Assembly (NCBI GenBank): GCA_964618545.1
Contig: CAZUBG010000001.1
Location: 2,885 to 66,884, forward strand
Direction of reading: 5' to 3'
Length of the DNA: 64,000 nucleotides
Origin: an uncultured Bifidobacteriaceae bacterium
Lineage (GTDB): Bacteria > Verrucomicrobiota > Verrucomicrobiia > Limisphaerales > UBA11358
Below the pieces are notes generated by a model. That model was given only the letters and a program-made list of their open reading frames with translations, was not told the origin of the DNA and made no database searches. The position numbers were made by a program, and so were the translations under genes. This document shows positions 5,808-43,527 of this stretch, one piece after another; position 1 is the first letter of the stretch; each line of letters begins with the position of its first letter.

Positions 5808-5976
5808 CAGCAATAAAGTTTTATTTATGAAATGACAATTGGCAAGCTTTGAAAATGCCACCCGGTGGGGTGCTCACCCCCTGCGTGGTTTTGGCAAACC
5901 TCGTCAACGCCCAACCGGCGCGGGCCTTGCCAAATGGTTCCGCGCCAATGTCACCGTGCCCGGTGTGCGGGCCGGT

Positions 5977-6423
5977 TCACGGCGCAATTTTATCACTCAC
6001 CCATTGGCGGGCTTCGGTAAAACTGGCCTGCAGTGAGGCATAGGCTTTTTTCGTGCCGTCCTTGACGCTGTCCCAAGTGGATTCCGTGGCGTTCTGGGCA
6101 TCAACCAACTGCTGGTTTAATTTCGCCTCCTGGTCGCGCAAAGCTTGCAGTTTGGGTTTGGCTTCAGCCTTGAGCGAGTCGCTGGCGTTGTCAATTTTAG
6201 CCGAGAGTTTGTCCAAATCCTGATTCAAGGCCGTCAACTGATCCTGCATGGATTTGACAAACTCCGCCCTCTCAGCGTAGGTGTAATCCTTCATGTCCTG
6301 GGCGGCTTGTTTGGTTTCGGTTTGAACCTTGTCAAGCTGTTGCGAGGCGGTTTGGTCTTTGTCGCACCCCGCCACCAACGCGGTGGTGGTCAGGAACATG
6401 AGAAACAACAGTTTATTTTTCAT
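5977..6423 (-). CDS. coiled-coil lipoprotein, unknown function (paralog of 60930..61376)
   Basis: Signal peptide plus lipobox (LVAGC). Heptad-rich sequence. Shares a Y-x-Y-E-R-x-E-F-V ... KLQxLRDQ ... ATxxxW ... VK pattern with the 60930..61376 product. Confidence 0.7.
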   Translation of the reverse strand: MKNKLLFLMFLTTTALVAGCDKDQTASQQLDKVQTETKQAAQDMKDYTYAERAEFVKSMQDQLTALNQDLDKLSAKIDNASDSLKAEAKPKLQALRDQEAKLNQQLVDAQNATESTWDSVKDGTKKAYASLQASFTEARQWVSDKIAP

Positions 6424-6682
6424 GACTTCAAGGATAACCCGGGGATCTTCGGGAAACTATGGGGTGAAACCCGACCCGGCGGAAAGAGAGAAACGGGCAA
6501 CCCCGTGTGCCGCGCTGATCCGCTGTTTGCGCCCGGACGGCACCATCTGCCTGCACCAAGCCCCTAATCCAAAGGCCCGACCCAGCGTTCTTCTCCATTG
6601 TCCGGTCTTCTCATTAAAGTCCACTTTTGTTCAAACAAAAAAATCTCCTTTAAAAAACTCCACGACACGCGCTCAACCCAAG

Positions 6683-6709
6683 CTTGACGAACCGCGCGTT
6701 CGGCCCCAT
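6683..6709 (+). promoter_or_regulatory. possible heat-shock (sigma32-like) promoter of clpB
   Basis: CTTGAC (6683-6688), a 15-nt spacer, then CCCCAT (6704-6709), ending only 9 nt before the clpB ATG. This resembles the CTTGAA-N13-15-CCCCATnT consensus known from proteobacteria. Confidence 0.3.
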
Positions 6710-6718
6710 TGATAAGGT

Positions 6719-27580: not shown

Positions 27581-27835
27581 TCACGGAAGATCGTTCAGAA
27601 TTCGGGCCCAGCGCAGTTGCAATTCGGCGTGCAGCCAGTGCTCCTCCGCCCGATCCGCCGGACGCCCTTCCTGCTCCCACAGGTAATGGGCATAACTCGC
27701 GATTTCCTCACGCGAAACCGCCCCGGCCGGGGACCTCTCCGGCCGTCTCGCCCGTGGACGCCGGACCGTTCGCGCCTGCTGGCCTCGAAAGTTGTGCGCG
27801 GGATGCGCCATAATTTCCATGATCATTGTTAACAA
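27581..27835 (-). CDS. DUF2934 domain protein
   Basis: C-terminal EEIASYAHYLWEQEGRPADRAEEHWLHAELQL matches the DUF2934 pattern (IAxxAYxLWexxGRPxGRxxedWlxAE). The start is ambiguous (several Met codons). Confidence 0.65.
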   Translation of the reverse strand: MLTMIMEIMAHPAHNFRGQQARTVRRPRARRPERSPAGAVSREEIASYAHYLWEQEGRPADRAEEHWLHAELQLRWARILNDLP

Positions 27836-27905
27836 CGCGGGCGGGGAGAAGTTCCACCGCCCGCGTCATGCTCCTTTGGTTTGACAATCTAACGCCGCAG
27901 AAAGT

Positions 27906-28130
27906 TCATCGGCCTCCATCGGCCAAATCAACCCGGGCGGCCGACAGTGCCGACAAAAGCTCGGCGGAATCCTCCGGCCGAACGGCCGCACCAACCCCCC
28001 CCTCATGACCCGGACCGGACGCGGGAAAATTCCAGGTGCGCTGACGGTAATCAAACCGGCAATGCAGCAGGATCCGTCGGTGGCCCGACAACAGAGTTTG
28101 ACCTTGAACGAGTTTATGGTTGGCTGACAT
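27906..28130 (-). CDS. small hypothetical protein
   Basis: The internal ATG at 28128-28130 is preceded by a strong SD-like aaaggagaacaaa. No family recognised. Confidence 0.35.
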   Translation of the reverse strand: MSANHKLVQGQTLLSGHRRILLHCRFDYRQRTWNFPASGPGHEGGVGAAVRPEDSAELLSALSAARVDLADGGR

Positions 28131-28458
28131 TTTGTTCTCCTTTTGATAACTGCTTCCAGTAGCCCGGTCAGCGGCTGTGTTAATACGATAGACTGAATCG
28201 TTTATTGCATCAAATTTATGTGAACAAACGATCGTCACGTTTGATCCTATTGTTTGACTCTCCGTTGATGTTTTTAAATACGTTAATACGACTTAACATG
28301 TCGTTATTTAACCACTATTTTTTAACTCTGTCAAATGGATTCTTTAATTCTTCCCCTTCACTGGGTGCATCCGCGCCCCGGAGCGCGGCTCTGTGAGCCG
28401 CAGCGCGTGGAATTCAGTTAAAATCCTGGAATCGGCTTTTGGCTACTCTCGGCGCATC

Positions 28459-28962
28459 CTATGCTGTCGGCCATCGGCCATCGACGTTCCGGCCCCCCTT
28501 GTTGTTGGGATCATTCGTGAGTGTCAACCCATCCAGGCGCAGCGGCCGGACGGACTTGGCTTTGCCCTGCGAATTCAGAAGCCGGAGATCCGCCGGATCG
28601 TATTCCGTGCTGAAAAACCGATAATCGCCTCCGTCCACCGCCGGCTTGCCCGTGTTCGTCCAGCGAATCCGGCCATAATACCCATCCGCCCGATTTTCCA
28701 ACTTCGTCAACCAGCCATAAGCGGTCGTCTCTTTGTCGGCGTCATGCTTGAAATGCTCATGGTCAATCAGCATCTCGATCCCGTGTGACAACTGGCCGGC
28801 CTCGGCATCGGCGTTGAACCGGTTGACGATGGCCACGCAGGCTTCATCGTCAATAACCTGCACCACGCCGGCGGCGCGGTTGGGATGGTTGCCCTTCACT
28901 TCGATCTGGTACCAGCCGTCCGTGGGATGTTGAAAATCGCGGTTGAGTATTTTTGGGTTCAT
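28459..28962 (-). CDS. phage Mu gpI-like protease/scaffold family protein (prophage remnant)
   Basis: PTDGWYQIEVKG...LIDHEHFKHD...AYGWLTKLENRADGYYGRIRWTNTGKPAVDGGDYRFFSTEY matches the Mu-like prophage I protein pattern (DGW..., iDyEH, aGWi..le.r.dGLw..v.WT....i..g.YRY.SP). Confidence 0.75.
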   Translation of the reverse strand: MNPKILNRDFQHPTDGWYQIEVKGNHPNRAAGVVQVIDDEACVAIVNRFNADAEAGQLSHGIEMLIDHEHFKHDADKETTAYGWLTKLENRADGYYGRIRWTNTGKPAVDGGDYRFFSTEYDPADLRLLNSQGKAKSVRPLRLDGLTLTNDPNNKGGRNVDGRWPTA

Positions 28963-29108
28963 GGTAGGTTAGGGGTGCTGGCGGCAACCATTCGTGAGTC
29001 GCGCCACCCAAGCGACAGCAAGTGTGTAGAACGCGGGATTCGCACCCCGCCGACAACTGCCTTCTAACGGCCAACTCCGGTTGGCCGTGTTTTTTTGCCG
29101 GGGTGAGT

Positions 29109-30152
29109 TCATGATTTTAATGGTTCAAAACTGGTGACCACATAGGCGCTTTCGGAATTTTTCCGCTGCAAGATGGCCTGCTGTCCGCCATGGGTGATGT
29201 AGAGCCGGTCCTCCTCTTGATGCGGGGTGATCTTTCCCCGGGCGATTACCTCCGGCAAATTGAGGGCGGTCGCCTCACCATGCTTGGCAACAATGTGGCT
29301 GACGCCATACCCATCGGCGTGCGTCGCGCCAGATTTATTGGGAGCCGGAGTGCCGGGCCGTCCCCATTCAAAATCAATCTGTCCGACCCCCTTCCGGTGC
29401 ATGGCTTTTTGCACGTCGGCTTTTTGCCGCAGAGCGCGGTTCATGGCTTTTTTCCCGCGTTGCAAATTGTCATCAATGGAAAGTCCGCCGCCATTTTCAT
29501 CCACCCATCTGCCCAGGCTGTCGCGGGGCTGTTCCCCGCGATTACACACCGCTTGCCCCAACTCCCCGGCGATGTAGCCTTCAATGGCGGCGGTCAGTGA
29601 ACTGTCCGCGAGGACATTTGCCTGGAGGGTGTTCAGGTCGCCTTCCAAGGCCAGCAGTTGGCGGCGCTGTTCAATGGCATCGGTGATTTTGCCAATAACC
29701 GCCAAGCGGTTGCGCAACGGGTCCAGATCAATCAGCGCCGCCGCGACCGGCGTGTGCAGCCGGTTCAGCAGGCGGTTGCGCACGGCGGAATTGACGTCCG
29801 ACCGGTCAATGTGCTGGTCCGCCTTTTGGGCGGGATCGCCCTGCCCGGTGAGCGGGTCGAGTTTGATGCGCGTCAATTTGTAGCCCGTCCGTTCCGAGAT
29901 TTCATGCTCGTCGGTTTGCAGGCCCACCCCCTCCAATTTCACAACCGTGTCAGCCACCTCGTTGACATCTTCATCATCCTGCACCGCCATGGTGAATTGC
30001 ACACAAATGGGCTGGCCGGGGAATTGGGCCGCCAGTTCCACCGCGTCAAAATCCCGTGGCCGGTGTTTTCGCAATCGCATCGCCGCATAAACCGCTTCGT
30101 TGATCCCATCGCCGTGTGCATTGTCGGATTCGTTGCCCTTGCGGTGAGCCAC
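29109..30152 (-). CDS. chimeric ORF: C-terminal end of a Mu gp29/DUF935-type portal joined to a module with a GYGVSHIVAKHG motif
   Basis: The N-terminal ~110 aa resemble only the tail of DUF935 portals (...VKLEGVGLQTDEHEISERTGYKL...). The ~400 aa normally upstream are absent. The C-terminal ~130 aa read (IDFEWGRPG...THADGYGVSHIVAKHGEATALNLPEVIARGKI...AYVVTSFEP). Confidence 0.5.
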   Translation of the reverse strand: MAHRKGNESDNAHGDGINEAVYAAMRLRKHRPRDFDAVELAAQFPGQPICVQFTMAVQDDEDVNEVADTVVKLEGVGLQTDEHEISERTGYKLTRIKLDPLTGQGDPAQKADQHIDRSDVNSAVRNRLLNRLHTPVAAALIDLDPLRNRLAVIGKITDAIEQRRQLLALEGDLNTLQANVLADSSLTAAIEGYIAGELGQAVCNRGEQPRDSLGRWVDENGGGLSIDDNLQRGKKAMNRALRQKADVQKAMHRKGVGQIDFEWGRPGTPAPNKSGATHADGYGVSHIVAKHGEATALNLPEVIARGKITPHQEEDRLYITHGGQQAILQRKNSESAYVVTSFEPLKS

Positions 30153-30221
30153 TTGCTTGGCCTGTGGCTTGAAGTGGCCGCCCTGTTCCTGTATGTGTAT
30201 GAGCAGCAGCTTTACGAGGCC

Positions 30222-30596
30222 ATGCTAAACCATGACCTGGATATCCTCGACGGCCTCATTGCGTCCGAAGTGCAGGGCGAAACGGTGAAGCACTTCCAGC
30301 AGGCCCAGCCGGAGGATAAAGTCCGCTCCATTGACGACACCGCAGGTATCCCGACCGGCGTTGCGCCGGACATTGAACGGCTGGTGGCCCAGCGTCAGGC
30401 GGAATTCAATGCCGCTTACGCGGCATCCAAAGCCCCGGACAACTTGGCGACGGACACGCCGCCGCCCGCCGCGCCATTCACACCGGCAAGTCCGGGGACG
30501 CCGCCACTTGATGCACCGCCATCGCCGCAACCGTCAAAAGGGCCGGATAATCTGGCCTCAGATGAACCGCCGACAGGTCCGGCGAATCCTGCGTAG
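30222..30596 (+). CDS. Pro-rich hypothetical protein (weak call)
   Basis: An in-frame ATG at 30222 lies within track ORF 29658..30596. Only the part beyond 30152 does not overlap the minus-strand gene. The tail is low-complexity and proline-rich. Confidence 0.25.
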   Translation: MLNHDLDILDGLIASEVQGETVKHFQQAQPEDKVRSIDDTAGIPTGVAPDIERLVAQRQAEFNAAYAASKAPDNLATDTPPPAAPFTPASPGTPPLDAPPSPQPSKGPDNLASDEPPTGPANPA

Positions 30597-30608
30597 TTTG
30601 GCGGGGAC

Positions 30609-30638
30609 TTTGACAGTCGCCCGATTTTACGGTATTAT
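30609..30638 (+). promoter_or_regulatory. sigma70-type promoter of vapB (near-leaderless)
   Basis: TTGACA (30609-30614), an 18-nt spacer, TATTAT (30633-30638). The vapB ATG is at 30646, only 7 nt after the -10 box. Confidence 0.55.
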
Positions 30639-30645
30639 CCCCCAC

Positions 30646-30888
30646 ATGCAGACAACGATTCAGCTTGATGATGCCCTGCTTGCGCAAGCCACCGAACTGG
30701 CCCGCGAGAAAGGCTACGACCTGTCGCATCTCATTGAGGAGACGCTACGCGATAAGATTGCACCCATGTTGCCCGTTGCACCGCGGCCTTTCCGTCACCT
30801 GACCACATTCACTGGCGACGGTGTCCACCCCGGCGTGGATTTGAATAATTCCGCTGCTTTGCTTACCCTGATGGAACAGGGTGAATGA
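30646..30888 (+). CDS. vapB: VapB-type antitoxin
   Basis: 80 aa starting MQTTIQLDDALLAQATELAREKGYDLSHLIEETLRDKI. The stop overlaps the PIN gene ATG (ATGA at 30885-30888). Confidence 0.7.
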   Translation: MQTTIQLDDALLAQATELAREKGYDLSHLIEETLRDKIAPMLPVAPRPFRHLTTFTGDGVHPGVDLNNSAALLTLMEQGE

Positions 30889-31336
30889 TTCTTCCCGACG
30901 TTAACATCCTCGTCTGCGCGTATCGCGGGGATGCCGTGGATCACCTCCTTTACAAGCAATGACTTGAAGGCATTATCCGAAGCGGCCAGCCCTACGGTAT
31001 CAGCGACCATGTGTTGAGCGGTTTCCTGCGCATCGCCACGAATCGGCGCATTTTCCCAACGCCGCAACGCCGAGCCCGATCCTTTCCGTGCTTGAGTTTG
31101 TGCGCGAGCTTCGCGAGCAGCCCAACTGCCGCATCATTGCGCCCGGTTCCCGCCACTGGCAAATCTTCACCGATTTGTGCAAATCGCAATCGGCCACCGG
31201 CAATCTGATTCCCGACATCTGGTTTGCCGCACTGGCCATCGAATCCGGCTGCGAATGGATCACCACCGACGGCGATTATGAAAAAATCCCCGGCTTGCGC
31301 TGGCGGCACCCTGTCACCGGCAAAGCCTCCAAGTAG
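30885..31336 (+). pseudogene. vapC: VapC (PIN-domain) toxin gene disrupted by a stop and two frame changes
   Basis: Three collinear pieces in three frames: MILPDVNILVCAYRGDAVDHLLYKQ*, then ...GISDHVLSGFLRIATNRRIFPTPQ..., then LEFVRELREQPNCRIIAPGSRHWQIFTDLC...NLIPDIWFAALAIESGCEWITTDGDYEKIPGLRWRHP. Confidence 0.8.
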
Positions 31337-31392
31337 TCGTAGGCAGCGTGTTTTTGTCCATATGGCACCTTTCGCCTGATTGCCCCGACGGC

Positions 31393-31425
31393 TTGCCATC
31401 GGTGGCAAGAGGGGTGTTTTTTGGC
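31393..31425 (+). terminator. possible intrinsic terminator after the vapBC remnant
   Basis: Stem cttgcca/tggcaag with a tcgg loop (31393-31410), followed by aggggtgttttttgg. Confidence 0.45.
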
Positions 31426-31674
31426 CGGAAATGTTTGCAGGGTGTCAGCATGAATCACCCCTTGGGTGTTTGTCATGCGCACCAACGCGGACGTTCTGAT
31501 GGGCACCGTGAAGTCCCCGCCAGTCCCCGCAATCAAAAAATCGGTTCCCCCCGAGGTCTCCCCCAATTTTCCGCTTTGCGTGGGCTGCGTTCCGCCCTGG
31601 CATCAAGGGACTTCCAGTTTTGTGCCATCAGGCCGCGAGTGGCGCAGCCTGCAAACTCAAAAAGGAGATTCACC

Positions 31675-31875
31675 ATGACTGACACGCAAACCACTTCCAA
31701 AACGCCCAGCCATATTGCCTGCCACGTCAAGGACGGCAATACCGGCAAAGGCTACTGGACTCGCATCGGTGCCGCTTGGGCACACGCTGACGGCAACGGC
31801 TTCAATATCCAGACGGACCTGTTGCCCCCGGACGGGCGCATCACGATCCGCACCACTTCCGAAAAGCCTGAATAA
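31675..31875 (+). CDS. small DUF736-like protein (mobile-element-associated type)
   Basis: Strong SD (aaaaggagattcaccATG). 66 aa with ...GKGYWTRIGAAWAHADGNGFNIQTDLLPPDGRITIR. The IGAAW...G-x-G-F/Y...D motif recalls DUF736. Family assignment is from memory. Confidence 0.5.
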   Translation: MTDTQTTSKTPSHIACHVKDGNTGKGYWTRIGAAWAHADGNGFNIQTDLLPPDGRITIRTTSEKPE

Positions 31876-31928
31876 CCCCTCAACCGGGCGGGTGTCACAG
31901 CCCCCCCACCATCCAAAGGAGATTTGCT

Positions 31929-32303
31929 ATGACCGACATTATTTACGCCTACACCCGCAAACAAGCCATTGAGGACGGCGAACAGGTGGACGTTTCCACC
32001 ACTGCCGCAGAGGCGGGCATCCGCTTCCCGGTGTTTCTAACCCGCCGAGTCTTTGACGAATACGTCACCGTTCCCGAAAACGTCAGTTTTCAGGACGAAG
32101 CTGGGCGGCTCTGGGACCTCGTCTGGATGCTGCGCTCCGCCATCAAAAGCGGCCGCAGCGACGGCGACCGCATCGCGTATTCGCTTTATGTCCGCAACGA
32201 CAACCGCCGCCCCCGGCTTGTGCAACTGGTTGCTGCCTGTGGCGCACTCGACATGGACGCCCCGGAACCGGCCATCACCGTTATGATGCCGGGCGAGGAT
32301 TGA
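31929..32303 (+). CDS. hypothetical protein of a type common on conjugative elements (DUF6573-like)
   Basis: SD aaaggagatttgctATG. YTRKQAIEDGEQVDVS...GRLWDLVWML...PAITVMMPGED*. The family name is recalled, not verified. Confidence 0.45.
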   Translation: MTDIIYAYTRKQAIEDGEQVDVSTTAAEAGIRFPVFLTRRVFDEYVTVPENVSFQDEAGRLWDLVWMLRSAIKSGRSDGDRIAYSLYVRNDNRRPRLVQLVAACGALDMDAPEPAITVMMPGED

Positions 32304-32401
32304 AGCTGGAACAACAAACGCTTCACTCGCAGTCACGACGGTGGGTGGTGCGTCCCGATTGCTCGGTTGCGAAGCTTTGTCAACTTTGCTACCCTCAATT
32401 C

Positions 32402-33889
32402 ATGTCAAACGCGGTCATAACAGAATCAGCAGCCCGTAGGCGGCAAGGGGAACTTGGACAGTTCCTCACGCCTGCGCCTGTGGCTGATTTTATGGCTTCG
32501 TTGTTTGAACCGCTTCCCAATGCGGTTCGACTGTTGGATGCCGGAGCAGGTGCGGGCGCACTCACGGCAGCTCTTATTTCACGCTTGTGTGAAAAAAAGA
32601 ACGACGTTCGCAGCATCGAAGCAACCCTTTACGAGCTTGACCCACTCATTCAGGATGCCCTTTTGGAAAGAATGCAGGATTGCCAGCACCTTTGCTCTGA
32701 GGTGGGCATTCGATTCAGCTTTAGCATCCATGCGACCGACTTCATCCAGGAAATGTCGGCACGCCTTGACGATAATTTATTCGCCACAAAGCCCCCCATT
32801 TTCGATGCCGCCATAGTGAATCCGCCTTACCGCAAAATCGGCATGGCGTCTGCAGAAAGGCGCAGCCTGCGCCACATTGGGGTTGAAACGAGCAATCTTT
32901 ACGCCGGATTCATTGCACTTATTCAACGTTTGCTCACCCCAGGCGGGCAGCTTGTGGGCATCACCCCAAGAAGCTTTTGCAACGGCCCTTATTTCCGCTC
33001 CTTCCGCGAAGATTTTCTCGCCAACTTGGAGGTTCACCGGTTGCATGTTTTTGAATCACGCGGAGCAGCATTTCGCGATGATAGCGTGTTGCAGGAGAAC
33101 ATTATTTTTCACGCCATCAAGGGCCGCAAGCAGCCCCGCGAGTTGGTGATTTCAAGCAGCAGCGGTGAGCATGGCGACATTGTCACCGAGAAGGCGGTGC
33201 CCTTTGCCGAAGTCGTTCACAAGCATGACGCAGAAAAGTTTATTCATATCCCCTCGGCATCGTGCCATGCGGTCGCTAAAAAAGCGATGGACGGCCTCCA
33301 CACAAGTCTTGCGTCTCTTGGCCTGACCGTGTCAACCGGGCCGGTTGTTGATTTCCGGCTGAAAGACGCTATTCGGTCGCAGCCGGAAAAGGGGACAGTG
33401 CCACTACTGTATCCCTGCCATTTCAACGGCGGCACCGTTCATTGGCCGAAACCGGATGCCCGCAAACCCAACGCCATTCTGGACAACGAGGAAACTCGTC
33501 GCTGGCTCGTTAGGTCCGGCATCTATCTGCTGACCAAACGATTCACGTCCAAAGAGGAACGTCGCCGCCTGGTCGCCTGCTTATTCGACCCGAAAGACCT
33601 GGATGCACGATGGCTCGGTTTTGAAAATCACCTTAACTATTTCCATGAAAACGGGCATGGGCTTGAAAGAAATCTCGCCGTCGGCCTTTTCGCATTCCTG
33701 AATTCCACAATTGTTGACCAGTATTTCAGACGTTTCAGCGGCCACACGCAAGTAAACGCCACCGATCTTCGCAAATTGGTTTATCCCGACCGCCAAACCC
33801 TGCAGGCGATGGGAAAAGAGATTCAGGAACTTGACCAACCGCAGGCCGCCATTGACGAACTAGTCGCGAAATATCTTCATGCCCACTAA
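32402..33889 (+). CDS. type II N6-adenine DNA methyltransferase (Eco57I/PstI-BsuBI M family)
   Basis: AdoMet motif LLDAGAGAGALT and catalytic NPPYRKI. Size (~495 aa) and adjacency to a BsuBI/PstI-type endonuclease support the call. The ATG at 32402 is preferred over the start of the track ORF at 32300. Confidence 0.9.
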   Translation: MSNAVITESAARRRQGELGQFLTPAPVADFMASLFEPLPNAVRLLDAGAGAGALTAALISRLCEKKNDVRSIEATLYELDPLIQDALLERMQDCQHLCSEVGIRFSFSIHATDFIQEMSARLDDNLFATKPPIFDAAIVNPPYRKIGMASAERRSLRHIGVETSNLYAGFIALIQRLLTPGGQLVGITPRSFCNGPYFRSFREDFLANLEVHRLHVFESRGAAFRDDSVLQENIIFHAIKGRKQPRELVISSSSGEHGDIVTEKAVPFAEVVHKHDAEKFIHIPSASCHAVAKKAMDGLHTSLASLGLTVSTGPVVDFRLKDAIRSQPEKGTVPLLYPCHFNGGTVHWPKPDARKPNAILDNEETRRWLVRSGIYLLTKRFTSKEERRRLVACLFDPKDLDARWLGFENHLNYFHENGHGLERNLAVGLFAFLNSTIVDQYFRRFSGHTQVNATDLRKLVYPDRQTLQAMGKEIQELDQPQAAIDELVAKYLHAH

Positions 33890-34868
33890 TAATCAAAACC
33901 GTCTGGAAGAATCCAAAAAGCAGAAGCTAGCCGAGACGGTTGCAATCCTGACCGCCTTGCAGTTTGACCCGAGGCAAAAGAATGAAACAGCCGCCTACAG
34001 CTTGCTTGCCTTGCTTGACCTGCACCCGGAGATTTCTTGGGCCGAGGCCCAAGCGCCACTTCGCGGCATCACGCCGGTCATTGATTTCATCGCCGAAGCT
34101 TATGGGGTTCGCTACGCACCCAACACCCGCGAAACGATTCGTGACGACGCAGTGAAGTTTTTCGTCGAGGCTGGGTTGCTGCTTCGCAACCCCGACGATC
34201 CGAATCGCCCAACCAACAGCGGAAAGACGGTCTATCAAATTGAGCCGTCAGCACTCGCATTACTCCGAACATTTGGAACTAAGGGATGGACGCCTGCGCT
34301 GGGAAAATATCTCGCCAGCCGCGAAAGCCTGAAGCACGAAATAGCTCGAAAGCGAGACTTGGCACGCGTGCCGGTAACTCTTCCCGATGGTTCAAAAGTA
34401 GCACTTTCGCCAGGAGGCCAGAATCCTCTCATTAAAGCAATCATTGAACAATTCTGCCCCGCATTCGCTCCTGGTGGTGTTGTCATCTATATCGGCGATA
34501 CGGAAAATAAATTTGTTCATCTTGAGGTTGAAGGCCTCAAATCCCTCGGCGTCGCGTTGGACTCAGCCGCAAAAATACCCGATGTCATTGTTCACTATAC
34601 CGCAAAGAATTGGTTATTATTGATTGAAGCAGTCACCAGTGCTGGACCGGTGGACGGCAAGCGTCGCAAGGAACTCAAAGGTTTGTTTGCAGGCTGCAAA
34701 GCGGGCTTGGTTTTTGTCACTGCGTTTGAAACTCGCCGCACCATGCAATCTTTTGTATCTAATATCGCCTGGGAATCTGAAGTATGGATTGCAGAAGACC
34801 CCGACCACATGATTCATTTCAACGGCGAGCGGTTTTTGGGACCATACCCTGACGTGTTACCAAAATGA
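33879..34868 (+). CDS. BsuBI/PstI-family type II restriction endonuclease
   Basis: 329 aa. The N-terminal domain pattern (...AAYSLLALLDL...GITPVIDFIAEAYGVRYAPNTRETIRDDAVKFFVEAGLLLRNPDDPNRPTNSGKTVYQI) matches the conserved YAPNTRET...NPD.P.RP.NS signature of this family. It overlaps the methyltransferase gene by 11 nt. Confidence 0.85.
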   Translation: MPTNNQNRLEESKKQKLAETVAILTALQFDPRQKNETAAYSLLALLDLHPEISWAEAQAPLRGITPVIDFIAEAYGVRYAPNTRETIRDDAVKFFVEAGLLLRNPDDPNRPTNSGKTVYQIEPSALALLRTFGTKGWTPALGKYLASRESLKHEIARKRDLARVPVTLPDGSKVALSPGGQNPLIKAIIEQFCPAFAPGGVVIYIGDTENKFVHLEVEGLKSLGVALDSAAKIPDVIVHYTAKNWLLLIEAVTSAGPVDGKRRKELKGLFAGCKAGLVFVTAFETRRTMQSFVSNIAWESEVWIAEDPDHMIHFNGERFLGPYPDVLPK

Positions 34869-34972
34869 AATTGCCTTTCGGACGCTGCCACTGCGAAAAC
34901 CTTATCGTAAGTAGGGCGACCGTGATTTAACCATCACGTGTGCACAACGGTAACGAATTTGCTTTTAGCAGC

Positions 34973-35947
34973 TTACTGGGCGGGAGTTATGACCCAAGCT
35001 AAAACGGCGGGAGACAAAACAGGAAGTTCAATTTCAAGAGGAACGAAAATTGAACGGTTGTTCTTTACATGGCCAAGCGGTTGAAAAAGTGTGGCTCCGC
35101 GTTCCAATACAAGAGATTCTAGGATCGCCCCATAGGGCGACAAATTAAGAGTCTTTGCCCCACGTCCGGCAGCGCTCCCAGCATCTAGAGACCTCCATAC
35201 ATCGGAGATGTCCAGTCGTAGCGTTCGCGCGAGGTCGATGACATTCTGAGCCAACCCTAAGATGTTGTTCGGCAGAATGCCAGGTTCGTGCCATCGCGAT
35301 TTAATGTCAGTGATGGCTTCGTTCACAATGCGAGTCTGCTTATCGCCCCTGTCCAGGAGCACGGAATCCGTGAGCCGTTTGGCCTGAGTAATGCTCAACT
35401 CGGCATTTTCCAACATAGCTTTAACTTGAAAAGCGACACGACTTGTTCCCCAACTGATTTCGTCTGCTTTATAAATGAGATCGTGTGTCGCGATTCCCCA
35501 CGCATGCTGAAGGAATGTTTTGATTTGTACCTCGAAAAGCAAGTCCCGACAAATCGTTGGAGGAAGTGCATCATCATCCTTCCAACAAACATACAACCGA
35601 AGGTCATCGAACGCGAAACTGTGAGACAACAAGCTGGTGATTTTTGGGTCGGCGGGACGGCGATACTCTTCTCGAAATAATTCTGTGATCAAAGCTGCTG
35701 CGTCAAATATTTTGGAGTGGTTCTCCACAACAATTGTGCAGCCAAACATATCCTCCGGGCGTCCGGGATGCGTCTCACGCCCAGTTTCGAGTTTAAGAGC
35801 GTAACTCTCCAATTCTTTAACTCGGCTTTCATAATGCCAGCGTGATGACCTTTTACCCGTGAGCTTCGCGTCAACGAGACCCTTGAGTTCGACATATTTC
35901 GGGCGTATCTCGTCGTAGCGATTACGAACAGACAACGGGATCTTCAT
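34973..35947 (-). CDS. RelA/SpoT-domain nucleotidyltransferase (stand-alone synthetase fold, no HD hydrolase) with an uncharacterised ~130-aa C-terminal region
   Basis: Motifs WHYESRVKELESYALKL, PEDMFGCTIVVEN and LLFEVQIKTFLQHAWGIATHDLIYK (the EvQirT..q..W....H...YK signature). The ATG at 35945-35947 overlaps the stop of the DUF262 gene. Confidence 0.8.
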   Translation of the reverse strand: MKIPLSVRNRYDEIRPKYVELKGLVDAKLTGKRSSRWHYESRVKELESYALKLETGRETHPGRPEDMFGCTIVVENHSKIFDAAALITELFREEYRRPADPKITSLLSHSFAFDDLRLYVCWKDDDALPPTICRDLLFEVQIKTFLQHAWGIATHDLIYKADEISWGTSRVAFQVKAMLENAELSITQAKRLTDSVLLDRGDKQTRIVNEAITDIKSRWHEPGILPNNILGLAQNVIDLARTLRLDISDVWRSLDAGSAAGRGAKTLNLSPYGAILESLVLERGATLFQPLGHVKNNRSIFVPLEIELPVLSPAVLAWVITPAQ

Positions 35948-37023
35948 GTAACATGCATTGCCTGCAAGAGAGCTTGCAGGCGGGCTGCGCGCGGAGTCAG
36001 ATCGGTGTGTGCTCCTTGAAGCGCTCTGACATAGTTGGTGGCTGGCTCAAGCCATGATTGCTGATCCTGCAAGTTGAGTTGAGTTGTATCTTGGTCGCGG
36101 ATTCTAGCGGCGAGCCCAACAAAAGAAGCGTAATGCTTTGCGAGGTCACTAGCGGCTCCGATTAGATTCCGGTGCAGGGTGACCAGGGACCAGAGGGTGT
36201 AAAACGCGCCGACTGTGGCGGCTGTCGCCTTGACGCAATTGTTCACCTCATTCATTTCGCTCAGGAATGATTTAGTATCGGTAAGCCGGGTCGTGAACGA
36301 CTCGGTATCAAGTTCGGCACCTTCATCATCAGGGTCATCATATTTGGCGTAGGCTTCGTCTAAGTGTTGCTGGTCAAACCCGGCTTGTTGGTTCTCGATT
36401 AGGACTAGCAGAAGCTCAGAAATAAACTGTGCATCCTTCATCCGCTTTGCCCTAGCGTTTGTCACGATACCCAGCGTTCGCCAAAGCGGGGACTGGCATT
36501 CATCTTCCACAGTCTTAATAAACCATCCATCGAACCGCGCATGGCGAAGTTCCTGAGGTTCAAGCTTTCTTGAATTTCTATTCAGACGGTCAAATGCGTC
36601 ATTGACGGCACTGGTCTCATCGGTTTCAAAATCCAGAAGTTCTACGGGAAGGACATAGTTCCAAAAGCGTTTGCGCTCAGCCTCTCCCAAGTCCTGCCAC
36701 TTTTTTCCCGCGATGCTCGACTCATCGAAATCCGATGGCATGGAGAGTTGATTCTGGGAGAACATAAGAATTGTCTCCAGTCGTTGCTTTCCGTCAACAA
36801 CGTCATATATTGCGCGGCCATCGACGGACATGCGCTTGTGGAGAAAAATGGCGGGGCATGGGTAGCCTTTGAAAATGGTGTCGAGAAAAAAGCGCCGATC
36901 CTTATTAGTCCAAACTGATCGTCGCTGATAACTTGGCGTCAATTGAAGCTGACTGTTTCTGGATTGATCCAGAAACCAAGTGATATCTTGAATTGTTACG
37001 CGTCTTCGCATGGTTTGGAACAT
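35944..37023 (-). CDS. DUF262 (ParB/Srx-like NTP-binding) domain protein lacking a DUF1524/HNH nuclease tail
   Basis: LTPSYQRRSVWTNKDRRFFLDTIFKGYPCPAIFL, VVDGKQRLETIL (the DGQQR motif) and AFDRLNRNSRKLEPQELRHARF. The C-terminal ~170 aa are helical and unassigned. Confidence 0.85.
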   Translation of the reverse strand: MFQTMRRRVTIQDITWFLDQSRNSQLQLTPSYQRRSVWTNKDRRFFLDTIFKGYPCPAIFLHKRMSVDGRAIYDVVDGKQRLETILMFSQNQLSMPSDFDESSIAGKKWQDLGEAERKRFWNYVLPVELLDFETDETSAVNDAFDRLNRNSRKLEPQELRHARFDGWFIKTVEDECQSPLWRTLGIVTNARAKRMKDAQFISELLLVLIENQQAGFDQQHLDEAYAKYDDPDDEGAELDTESFTTRLTDTKSFLSEMNEVNNCVKATAATVGAFYTLWSLVTLHRNLIGAASDLAKHYASFVGLAARIRDQDTTQLNLQDQQSWLEPATNYVRALQGAHTDLTPRAARLQALLQAMHVT

Positions 37024-37348
37024 TAATAGCGTTTTGAGCCAAGCGCAAGCTCAACGAATGATGCATATTCTCGATGGCTACCACCTTTAATTGAAGCTGC
37101 TATCAGTTCGCGATGTTCATTCTAGGAGCCACCCACCCCGCGACCCGGTTTGAGCCTTCGGCGACTCTGCGAGGCCAGAGGGTTTTGGTTGGTGTTTTTG
37201 ACATGGCGCGTTTTGTTTTTAGCGGACGCCTTCTCAGGTCTCACCGTATGCCGCTTGCTGCTACGCCATCTTTTTCAAACTTCTGATTCCCGCTCTCGCG
37301 GGGCGTTTTATTTCCTGCGACGAAGAGCATGGGGACACGCCAGCGACC

Positions 37349-37546
37349 GGGGCTACCGCAGCCGCCGCCCTGATAGTCATGCACAACCACCCCAGCGGGG
37401 AAAGCGCACCGTCAGACGCAGATATTAAGGTGACACGGGATTTAATCCGCGCCGGGCAGCTTTTGAAAATCGAAGTGCTTGACCATGTCATTATCGGCAA
37501 CGGCAACCGCACCAGCTTGCGCGAGCAGGGTTTCTTTTACTCATGA
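37349..37546 (+). pseudogene. RadC-like JAB/MPN domain remnant (C-terminal fragment only)
   Basis: My own translation is ...[59 protein letters not shown]. The HNHPSG...S..D JAMM motif is present. The sequence upstream in the same frame is not RadC-like and has no plausible start. Confidence 0.75.
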
Positions 37547-37672
37547 ACTGTCAGCAACTGTCAGTGAAAGTGCAAGTAACCGGGGTGAAAAGTTCACCAA
37601 AATACTGGCAGGTTTTAGCGAATAAACCTTGATTTTACAGGGGTTTTTGATAAATTACAGCTATTCTGATTC

Positions 37673-37900
37673 ATGCAACAGACCGTGCTTATCGGTGAAG
37701 AAAATGATTACTTGAGTTTTCTTTATGTGACCATTCAGGCGGATAATGTATTTGATGGACCGGCCGGCCTTTCATCAGCCGCACAGCCAGCCGTGATGTC
37801 CGATCTCCAGAAATGGATGCAGGAGCAAAGCGAACCAAAAAAGGCCGAACCCAACCCGGGCCAGGAAGAGGCCGTCCAATACATGCCCAAGATCCGGTGA
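37673..37900 (+). CDS. hypothetical small protein (weak)
   Basis: 75-aa ORF in the AT-richer junction region. No motifs recognised. Confidence 0.25.
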   Translation: MQQTVLIGEENDYLSFLYVTIQADNVFDGPAGLSSAAQPAVMSDLQKWMQEQSEPKKAEPNPGQEEAVQYMPKIR

Positions 37901-37964
37901 ACGTGGGGGGGGCCGGACGCTGGGGACGCGCCTTCCTTGCAAAATTCACCCACCACCCCGCCCC

Positions 37965-38090
37965 CGTTACCTAGTAACGAAAAACGGCTCATTTTGACAT
38001 TCTCCCTTGACACACTCTAAACCACTCAATTCCAACGCGTTACCAATCTTGTCAACCCAAATCTGCACCCCACCCCGTTACTAGGTAACG
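37965..38090. promoter_or_regulatory. pair of inverted 15-bp palindromic sites flanking a TTGACA-rich spacer (locus A)
   Basis: cgttacctagtaacg at 37965-37979, and its reverse complement cgttactaggtaacg at 38076-38090. The spacer contains ttgaca twice plus cttgtcaaccc. Confidence 0.5.
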
Positions 38091-43391: not shown

Positions 43392-43527
43392 CGTTACCTA
43401 GTAACGCGGTTTTTCACCCGCCGCGCCAACCGGAATCGTCAACCCCTTGATTCCATTGGTGTTTTTAGATGTTTTTGTCAAGTAATATTATTTTTTGCGG
43501 TTGCTCATTTTCCGTTACTAGGTAACG
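43392..43527. promoter_or_regulatory. second pair of the same inverted 15-bp palindromic sites (locus B) in the galE / histidine-kinase divergent region
   Basis: cgttacctagtaacg at 43392-43406 and cgttactaggtaacg at 43513-43527. The spacer contains tcgtcaacccc and ttgtcaagtaatatta. Confidence 0.5.

Follow-up and report, generated by a model that had tools for sequence, protein, structure and literature searches.

A recurrent methylase-linked DUF262-RelA/SpoT gene cassette in a probable mobile-element remnant of an uncultured Limisphaerales-type bacterium

The PD-T4-2 system of E. coli ECOR65 consists of a DUF262 protein and a HEPN protein (PMC10952713) and protects E. coli against T4 (PMC9519451, PMC10952713). 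The DUF262 domains of GmrSD, BrxU, and SspE read DNA modifications (PMC10952713), and NsnA of the Menshen system, which sometimes lies beside methylases, is a proposed DNA-sensing module (PMC12065111). PANGU type I pairs a YejK-like nucleoid protein, Pag1A, with Pag1B, a toxic small alarmone synthetase (toxSAS) of the GRel type; once released, the DNA-bound partner activates the toxSAS, pppGpp is made, and infection is aborted (bioRxiv 10.64898/2026.04.06.716658). Here we analyze a locus related to these systems in a 64,000-nucleotide stretch of DNA (the window) from an uncultured Verrucomicrobiota population of Limisphaerales type. Between 32.4 and 37.0 kb the window carries four intact genes, a methylase and a restriction nuclease facing a DUF262 gene and a gene for a RelA/SpoT homolog (RSH). 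We think it probable that these genes form a methylase-linked composite defense cassette, PD-T4-2-like with an alarmone-synthetase-type effector in place of HEPN, and that the DNA around them is an eroded mobile-element remnant. The four genes are as follows.

32402-33889 (+): N6-adenine DNA methyltransferase of the Eco57I/PstI type, intact, 495 amino acids as called in public contigs
33879-34868 (+): type II restriction endonuclease of the BsuBI/PstI family, intact, overlapping the methylase gene by 11 bp
34973-35947 (-): RelA/SpoT homolog with the small-alarmone-synthetase fold, 324 amino acids (Pfam, structural model, and Foldseek)
35944-37023 (-): DUF262 protein (GmrSD_N, ParB/Srx-fold NTPase), 359 amino acids (Pfam GmrSD_N, E-value 4.1e-23)

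The two plus-strand genes resemble a classical PstI/BsuBI restriction-modification (R-M) pair in their overlap and in matching their profiles from end to end. The methylase, whose open reading frame (ORF) opens at 32300 and whose start at 32402 is taken from public-contig calls, matched Pfam Eco57I (E-value 1.2e-10) and PADLOC MTase_II (1.6e-163, profile positions 17-488 of 494). The nuclease matched Pfam BsuBI_PstI_RE over the whole catalytic domain (1.7e-61, 1-154 of 154), BsuBI_PstI_RE_N over the N-terminal helix-turn-helix domain (3.6e-43, 2-139 of 140), and PADLOC REase_II (1.3e-121). A nuclease with both domains and an adjoining N6-adenine methyltransferase, the make-up of a PstI/BsuBI type II R-M system, are therefore present. 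The window differs from the classical system in that the latter is a two-gene unit, and most of its plasmid copies lack a DUF262/RSH pair.

The RSH-like and DUF262 genes form a minus-strand operon with a 4-bp overlap and encode proteins of 36.6 and 41.5 kDa, respectively. The RSH-like protein has an N-terminal synthetase domain (residues ~1-195) followed by a helical C-terminal domain for which no structural match was found; residues 196-324 have a net charge of 0 (family mean 0.4). Its Pfam RelA_SpoT score was 29.5 bits against a cut-off of 27. An AlphaFold2 model (predicted local distance difference test (pLDDT) score 90) gave RelQ, RelP, CapRel, FaRel2, and Tas1 as top Foldseek matches over residues ~1-195, with a probability of 1.0 for RelQ, RelP, and CapRel. 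The family is large and uniform, with 1626 clusters of ~320 amino acids (about 1,600-2,000). Residues Arg-42, Lys-44, Ser-48, Asp-66, Glu-139, Gln-141, His-155, Tyr-159, and Lys-160 were invariant in 32 of its sequences; these fall in R-x-K-x3-S, D-x2-G, E-x-Q-I-[RK]-T, and H-x3-Y-K, which we take to be the synthetase motifs of the family. With the synthetase fold and conserved motifs of an RSH enzyme, the protein is proposed as the candidate effector. PADLOC returned only a motif-level match to PDC-S33 for it, and no RSH-like homolog was found in the phage collection.

The best PADLOC match of the DUF262 protein was NsnA (7.8e-31), followed by PD-T4-2_A (2.9e-22, residues 22-235). Gln-33-Arg-34, Val-37-Trp-38, and the DGKQR motif at residues 77-81 are invariant. 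An AlphaFold2 model (pLDDT 85) gave BrxU, SspE, ParB, and sulfiredoxin as top matches, all of them weak. Pfam detected GmrSD_N only, with no DUF1524 nuclease in the protein. The protein, which is translationally coupled to the RSH-like gene, is proposed as a candidate sensor or regulator. A sequence search of the PDB with both proteins returned no matches, the PANGU structure 9UFP included, and NCBIfam holds a model for neither of them.

The association of these genes was examined in a metagenome scan that yielded 80 loci, the best-scoring of 203. A DUF262 gene was present in 28 of 29 non-redundant loci flanked by 1.5 kb or more on each side, an N6-methylase gene within 4.5 kb in 27, and a PstI-type nuclease gene in 19; the same seeds and thresholds applied to 546 kb of control loci gave 0 matches. 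The gene immediately preceding the RSH-like gene was DUF262 in 73 of the 74 loci for which 500 bp or more of upstream sequence was available. Likewise, all four distant genomes looked up have the RSH-like gene immediately downstream of DUF262 and next to a gene for an Eco57I-type methylase, and three of them also have one for a PstI-type nuclease. The association extends to Planctomycetes, Verrucomicrobia, Rhizobium plasmids, and three IMG/VR contigs; conjugative plasmids are among the carriers, and the cassette occupies unrelated genomic contexts in other Limisphaerales and in other phyla. At least five gene orders were found. Methylase-nuclease-DUF262-RSH on one strand was the commonest, and the convergent layout of the window recurs in other loci. 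Several loci (L081, L093, L115, L087, L095, L113, L120, and others) have a nuclease-less three-gene operon in which an N6_Mtase protein of ~440 amino acids, from a different and shorter family, is encoded directly upstream of DUF262 and then the RSH-like gene. The R-M and DUF262/RelA-SpoT pairs, which the first-pass annotation of this DNA had entered as separate items, are thus associated in a recurrent methylase-linked cassette and are not two unrelated tenants. A combination of DUF262, RSH, and methylase was not found described in the searchable literature, outside which subscription journals mostly lie, and the cassette is apparently both recurrent and undescribed.

Variants of the cassette were seen at individual loci. 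At L059 (344-2395) DUF262 and RSH are joined in a single ORF of 683 amino acids, and methylase-nuclease fusion ORFs occur at L053 (114-2669) and L096 (3793-6363); all three may be natural fusions or sequencing errors. At L117 a 267-amino acid protein with a weak HEPN match is encoded directly upstream of DUF262-RSH (5913-6716). Genes for DUF4365 proteins, which are restriction-endonuclease-like, adjoin the cassette in two unrelated loci (L093, 5101-6390; L045, 1-792), where DUF4365 may take the place of the nuclease as a partner. A small HTH_17 gene, like that of an R-M controller protein, precedes the methylase gene in the nearest relatives of the pair (L135-L137, Limisphaerales, 64% identity); in the window this position is held by a DUF6573 gene.

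Specifically, the DUF262/RSH pair resembles PD-T4-2 in being a two-gene operon led by a DUF262-only protein without DUF1524, and this protein matches PD-T4-2_A. It differs in its second gene, which has the RSH/alarmone-synthetase fold rather than that of a HEPN RNase and gave no PD-T4-2_B match, and the near-obligate methylase neighbor lies outside the published PD-T4-2 definition. A plasmid of Psychrobacter cryohalolentis (NZ_CP022042.2, locus L131, 4587-8785) carries genes for DUF262 and a MAE_28990-family HEPN nuclease that converge on those for an Eco57I-type methylase and a BsuBI/PstI nuclease, which is the layout of the window with the HEPN nuclease replacing the RSH-like gene. Because this DUF262-HEPN pair holds the same convergent position, the window pair reads as an effector-swapped relative of PD-T4-2; PD-T4-2-like pairs may also be R-M-linked.

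By analogy, PANGU type I would be the closest working analog of the cassette, as a partner that activates the enzyme, with infection aborted, is also the logic of the model proposed below. Nevertheless, membership of PANGU was rejected. The partner in the window is of the DUF262/ParB fold and not YejK-like, the acidic DNA-mimic C-terminal domain of the PANGU toxSAS is absent from the RSH-like protein (C-domain charge ~0), and PANGU lacks the methylase link. With respect to Menshen (NsnA-NsnB-NsnC), the window DUF262 protein has NsnA as its best match. However, the NsnB ABC ATPase and the NsnC inPIN effector were not found within 27.5-38.2 kb, and the C-terminal domain of the window protein is acidic rather than a DNA-binding domain of the ParBDB type. 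Like GmrSD, BrxU, and SspE, the window protein has an N-terminal DUF262 NTPase domain with a DG(Q/K)QR motif; unlike them, it has no DUF1524 His-Me nuclease, and the effector is a separate RSH-like protein. The toxSAS toxin-antitoxin (TA) modules and CapRel share with the RSH-like protein the small-alarmone-synthetase fold and retained synthetase motifs, and CapRel, FaRel2, and Tas1 are among its structural matches. Similarity in sequence is at Pfam-threshold level only, and the partner in the window is a large NTPase, whereas theirs is a small antitoxin, a small alarmone hydrolase, or a fused pseudo-zinc-finger domain.

The cassette stands in DNA of deviant composition. Over 32300-38000 the GC content is 0.514, the lowest of any 5.7-kb stretch of the window; 5.7-kb segments outside the region have a mean of 0.600 (standard deviation 0.010, minimum 0.577). 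GC content at third codon positions (GC3) is 0.50-0.58 in the four cassette genes and 0.72-0.80 in flanking genes, a gap of ~0.2. In contrast, 27850-32299 is nearly host-like, with a GC content of 0.580 and GC3 of 0.60-0.75, apart from an AT-rich spacer (GC 0.42 at 28100-28399). The composition expected of a classical genomic island is therefore confined to 32.3-38.0 kb. The first-pass annotation had described 27850-37600 as an old, AT-richer island; GC and GC3 profiles bear out the AT shift for 32.3-38.0 kb (0.514 versus 0.600) and not for 27.85-32.3 kb (~0.58). The block is not uniformly old, its left half being host-like in composition and its right 5.7 kb strongly foreign. The left edge lies somewhere within 27840-28240 and the right edge of the foreign block at ~37950. 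Because low GC continues to ~37.95 kb, the right edge given before, 37.6 kb, fell ~350 bp short. As had been noted, an integrase, a tRNA, and flanking repeats, further marks of a classical island, are lacking: none of the genes called between 16.2 and 50.3 kb encodes an integrase, the window has no tRNA, and there is no convincing direct repeat at the edges, where a search for att-like repeats gave only short, low-identity chance pairs. An Rfam search of 26-40 kb gave nothing above noise.

Profile searches and translations confirmed the whole of the gene content first listed for the block (a gpI-like protease, a portal tail, vapB with a broken vapC, small genes led by Shine-Dalgarno (SD) sequences, the R-M pair, the DUF262/RelA-SpoT pair, and RadC), as well as its description as a mosaic of truncated mobile-element parts, which stem from three or more kinds of mobile or selfish element: a Mu-like head piece, vapBC with a dead toxin, and plasmid or integrative and conjugative element (ICE)-type genes together with a RadC fragment. 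The further idea that it now works mainly as a defense island stood insofar as the sole clearly intact multi-gene unit is of defensive type, although its function is one that we infer. The features on either side of the cassette are as follows.

27906-28238 (-): small ORF, 110 amino acids, no Pfam or PHROG match; a 74-amino acid version starts after a strong AAGGAG
28240-28392: AT-rich spacer, adjoining the small ORF
28459-28962 (-): N-terminal half of a Mu gpI-type head maturation protease/scaffold, 167 amino acids versus ~330-340 (Mu-like_Pro, phrog_328)
29109-30152 (-): C-terminal half of a Mu-type portal-PBECR1 protein, 5'-truncated, ~335 residues missing (PBECR1 match and homologs)
30646-30888 (+): vapB-like ribbon-helix-helix (RHH) antitoxin gene, intact (VapB_antitoxin, RHH_1, and DUF6364 matches)
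30885-31336 (+): vapC (PIN) pseudogene, overlapping vapB in ATGA and broken by a TGA nonsense codon at 30960 and a frameshift at ~31062-31088
31675-31875 (+): SD-led gene of a plasmid-borne family, 66 amino acids (tblastn)
31929-32303 (+): DUF6573 protein of a plasmid/conjugative-element family (Pfam DUF6573, 1.1e-21)
37189-37546 (+): RadC remnant, readable only from ~37340 over the final ~65 codons of the JAB domain (HNHPSG...), with in-frame stops upstream
37673-37900 (+): ORF of 75 amino acids, GC 0.51, no Pfam or PHROG match

The protease fragment matched Pfam Mu-like_Pro over profile positions 37-127 of 330 only (E-value 1.3e-12) and phrog_328, head maturation protease, over 20-151 of 339 (7.3e-15). 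The portal fragment gave a match to PBECR1, a nuclease-like domain, at residues 250-343 (6.8e-09), a weak match to the end of Portal_Mu at residues 44-90, and, in the phage collection, only weak matches to the PBECR1 domain. An exhaustive search found homologs of 640-690 amino acids with Portal_Mu followed by PBECR1, and the fragment aligns to their C-terminal halves (residues ~335-680). Since full-length homologs carry both domains, the combination is the natural architecture of the family and the gene is merely 5'-truncated; the initial interpretation of a portal tail fused to a foreign module by rearrangement was rejected. The protease and portal pieces amount to 1.7 kb from the interior of a Mu-like head module that has lost both ends. 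The head, tail, and transposition modules of a complete Mu-like prophage are represented by these two half genes only. A 147-amino acid ORF called in public annotations at 30153-30596 (+) has a proline-rich low-complexity tail and no family match, and may be spurious.

The VapB_antitoxin, RHH_1, and DUF6364 matches of the vapB gene are weak and all under curated cut-offs. A predicted sigma-70-like promoter (TTGACA-17-TATTAT, 11 of 12 positions matching) precedes it at 30610-30638. The C-terminal half of vapC as read matches the PIN profile over 56-119 of 120, and an in silico repair extends this to 1-119 of 120 (44.5 bits). With its nonsense codon and frameshift, the gene does not provide the intact PIN toxin that a VapBC system requires downstream of the RHH/VapB antitoxin. 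The two small genes that follow share the SD/start lead AAAGGAGATT..ATGAC.GACA. Homologs of the first were found by tblastn on 28 plasmids, mainly of Rhizobiales, and homologs of the DUF6573 gene on 216 plasmids, 136 of them typed as conjugative.

We propose that 27.9-38.0 kb is non-core DNA that would have been deposited in layers. The left 4.4 kb would be debris of near-host composition (the Mu-like shard, vapBC with its dead toxin, and two plasmid/ICE-type genes), and the right 5.7 kb a compositionally foreign layer comprising the intact cassette (32.4-37.0 kb) and then the RadC stump and small ORF. In the proposed mechanism the N6-adenine methylase would mark host DNA and the PstI-type nuclease would cut unmarked incoming DNA, as members of the family are known to do. 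Control of the RSH-like enzyme encoded in the convergent, translationally coupled operon would fall to the DUF262 protein, which is a ParB/Srx-fold NTPase like those that sense the state of DNA in GmrSD, BrxU, SspE, and Menshen. When triggered, the RSH-like enzyme would pyrophosphorylate nucleotides or tRNA and arrest the infected cell, forming a second, abortive line of defense. Either the methylation mark or the methylase itself may keep the DUF262-RSH arm silent on self, given that the near-constant companion of that arm is the methylase rather than the nuclease.

The integrity of the genes, the composition of the DNA, the protein folds with their catalytic motifs, and the cross-phylum association are shown here; defense function, toxicity, trigger, and product or chemistry are what we infer from them, and several observations weigh against the reading as a whole. 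As the best-scoring loci of the scan, the 80 are biased toward relatives of the query, and most of their contigs are short. Two loci (L117 and L122) have the RSH-like gene without a recognizable methylase. Pairwise-identity covariation is strong within pairs (rho 0.81 for methylase-nuclease, 0.83 for DUF262-RSH) and weaker between them (0.25-0.43), so that coupling is looser between pairs than within them. That the two modules reassort and yet stay adjacent nevertheless counts for the association, as at L051, where the R-M genes are 76-81% identical to those of the window and the DUF262/RSH pair is only ~52% identical. PstI-type nucleases were found on 181 plasmids and the RSH-like gene on only 5, and so the R-M system does not need the pair. 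The helical C-terminal half of the DUF262 protein (residues 166-359) has a net charge of approximately -10 across the family, a poor fit with direct DNA binding by that domain and unexpected in a presumed DNA sensor. Avoidance of CTGCAG, the site that PstI/BsuBI systems recognize and protect by m6A, was considered as a hint of specificity; it was not seen (16 sites in the window versus 14.7 expected) and is uninformative. Lastly, no empty site in a relative backs the island status of the block, and the nearest relatives (72-83% protein identity) share no synteny on either flank.

An alternative is that the type II R-M system and a DUF262/RSH abortive-infection pair are independent, brought together by the clustering and joint transfer of defense genes without functional coupling. 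The looser covariation between pairs, the variable order and orientation among loci, and the excess of plasmid R-M systems without the pair would all follow, and PD-T4-2, the nearest validated system, functions as two genes (PMC9519451). We nonetheless regard independence as unlikely. Generic clustering would yield varied neighbors, whereas an N6-methylase lies within 4.5 kb in 27 of 29 loci and nowhere in the 546-kb control; the methylase is a specific partner even where the nuclease is missing, in the same tight operon and directly upstream of DUF262; and the link outlasts replacement of the methylase family. In a bolder view, possible although doubtful, the methylase-DUF262-RSH core is a distinct R-M-like immune system whose mark is read by a ParB-fold NTPase in place of a nuclease; this NTPase would license an alarmone-synthetase-type enzyme, with the PstI-type nuclease as an optional first-line add-on. 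If this were true, methylation-based discrimination between self and non-self would be tied to pyrophosphorylation of nucleotides or tRNA and to abortive infection.

Two further explanations, both improbable in our judgment, assign the DUF262/RSH pair another role. One is that it is a TA or addiction module, in which a toxSAS toxin is neutralized by the DUF262 protein and stabilizes the R-M or methylase cassette on mobile elements without sensing phage. RSH-fold toxins with adjoining antitoxins are well known, FaRel2/ATfaRel2 and CapRel being among the structural matches; the two genes are translationally coupled and tightly co-evolving, the acidic DUF262 C-domain could be a protein-binding neutralizer, and the cassette is found on conjugative plasmids. 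Known toxSAS antitoxins are, however, small or hydrolases, and a 359-amino acid NTPase with invariant DGKQR and QR..VW points instead to regulated sensing; PANGU shows that the partner of a toxSAS can be an activator, and addiction leaves the methylase link unexplained. The other makes the pair a type IV-like arm for sensing phage DNA that is hypermodified or bears foreign methylation, complementing a type II R-M system directed at unmodified DNA, as BrxU does BREX. This agrees with the reading of DNA modifications by DUF262 domains in GmrSD, BrxU, and SspE, and with BrxU and SspE as top, if weak, fold matches. Against it, there is no DUF1524 nuclease, and methylase-DUF262-RSH operons without a nuclease are not explained by the complementing of one. 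Finally, the block might be ordinary lineage-specific chromosome, its dip in composition arising from gene-specific constraints. In favor of this, neither an integrase nor a tRNA nor flanking repeats were found, the left half approaches the host in composition, and poor synteny throughout the lineage means that absence from relatives says little. This is very improbable given a 5.7-kb GC content far under the outside minimum and GC3 ~0.2 lower, a content of phage, plasmid, TA, and R-M genes of which several are truncated, and the presence of the same cassette in unrelated contexts.

As an island the locus is ordinary, as decayed mobile-element debris around defense genes is common in bacterial chromosomes, and its value lies in the cassette: a family of DUF262 NTPases and alarmone-synthetase-fold proteins with an N6-adenine methylase almost always beside them, in several phyla, on plasmids, and in a few viral contigs. 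Should the link prove functional, the cassette would bring a new effector class to the DUF262 sensor systems grouped with PD-T4-2, Menshen, and Dazbog, would be the second case, after PANGU, in which a toxSAS is controlled by a partner other than an antitoxin, and would open methylation-gated abortive infection to test.

The genes that flank the block are of housekeeping or glycan type: an M20 peptidase, a cupin protein, a GH28 polygalacturonase, and a DUF2934 protein on the left, and a transketolase-like protein, NikR, a GDSL lipase, and an epimerase on the right. In exact-protein look-ups, identical contigs with an identical island were found in JGI metagenomes 3300041809 and 3300042090 and in ENA ERZ27250145, and the only contigs sharing the flanks of the window came from the same population. 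The nearest relatives of the transketolase-like gene in genome collections are Limisphaerales/subdivision 3 metagenome-assembled genomes (70-83% identity). In 32 Verrucomicrobial loci (47-90% identity), from genome contigs scanned with this gene, neither flank was conserved, and the nearest relatives of the GH28 gene (77% and 72% identity) showed no synteny with the window. Because synteny is poor everywhere in this lineage, absence of the block from relatives proves little.

Assembly forks in other samples at 27672, 30048, and 37350-37492 are the sole pointers to variability of the island, at which they hint. In JGI sample 3300042090 one contig ends at 27672 and a second leaves the window at 30048 into 45 nucleotides absent from it (contigs L006 and L002), suggesting a structural variant of the Mu-remnant segment. 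At the other end, the RadC remnant matched phrog_10276 (3.4e-19, profile positions 101-151 of 153), and a terminator-like hairpin at 37288-37303 precedes its readable codons. In three samples, four contigs stop or part from the window within 37189-37492: they end at 37366, 37377, and 37492 or drift to ~83% identity across 37189-37350. The RadC stump and the hairpin in front of it therefore belong to a multi-copy repeat in the source community.

Just beyond the right edge, perfect palindromes GTTACCTAGTAAC ... GTTACTAGGTAAC lie at 37966-37978 and 38077-38089, 111 bp apart, and the same pair occurs again at 43393-43405 and 43514-43526, 121 bp apart (4 matches versus 0.02 expected). Conservation is limited to the boxes and a central TTGTCAA. 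No gene lies downstream of the first pair. As the pair recurs at 43393/43514, the palindromes at 37966/38077 were rejected as att sites and taken as likely host operators; the arrangement looks like a paired-operator promoter of a host regulator.

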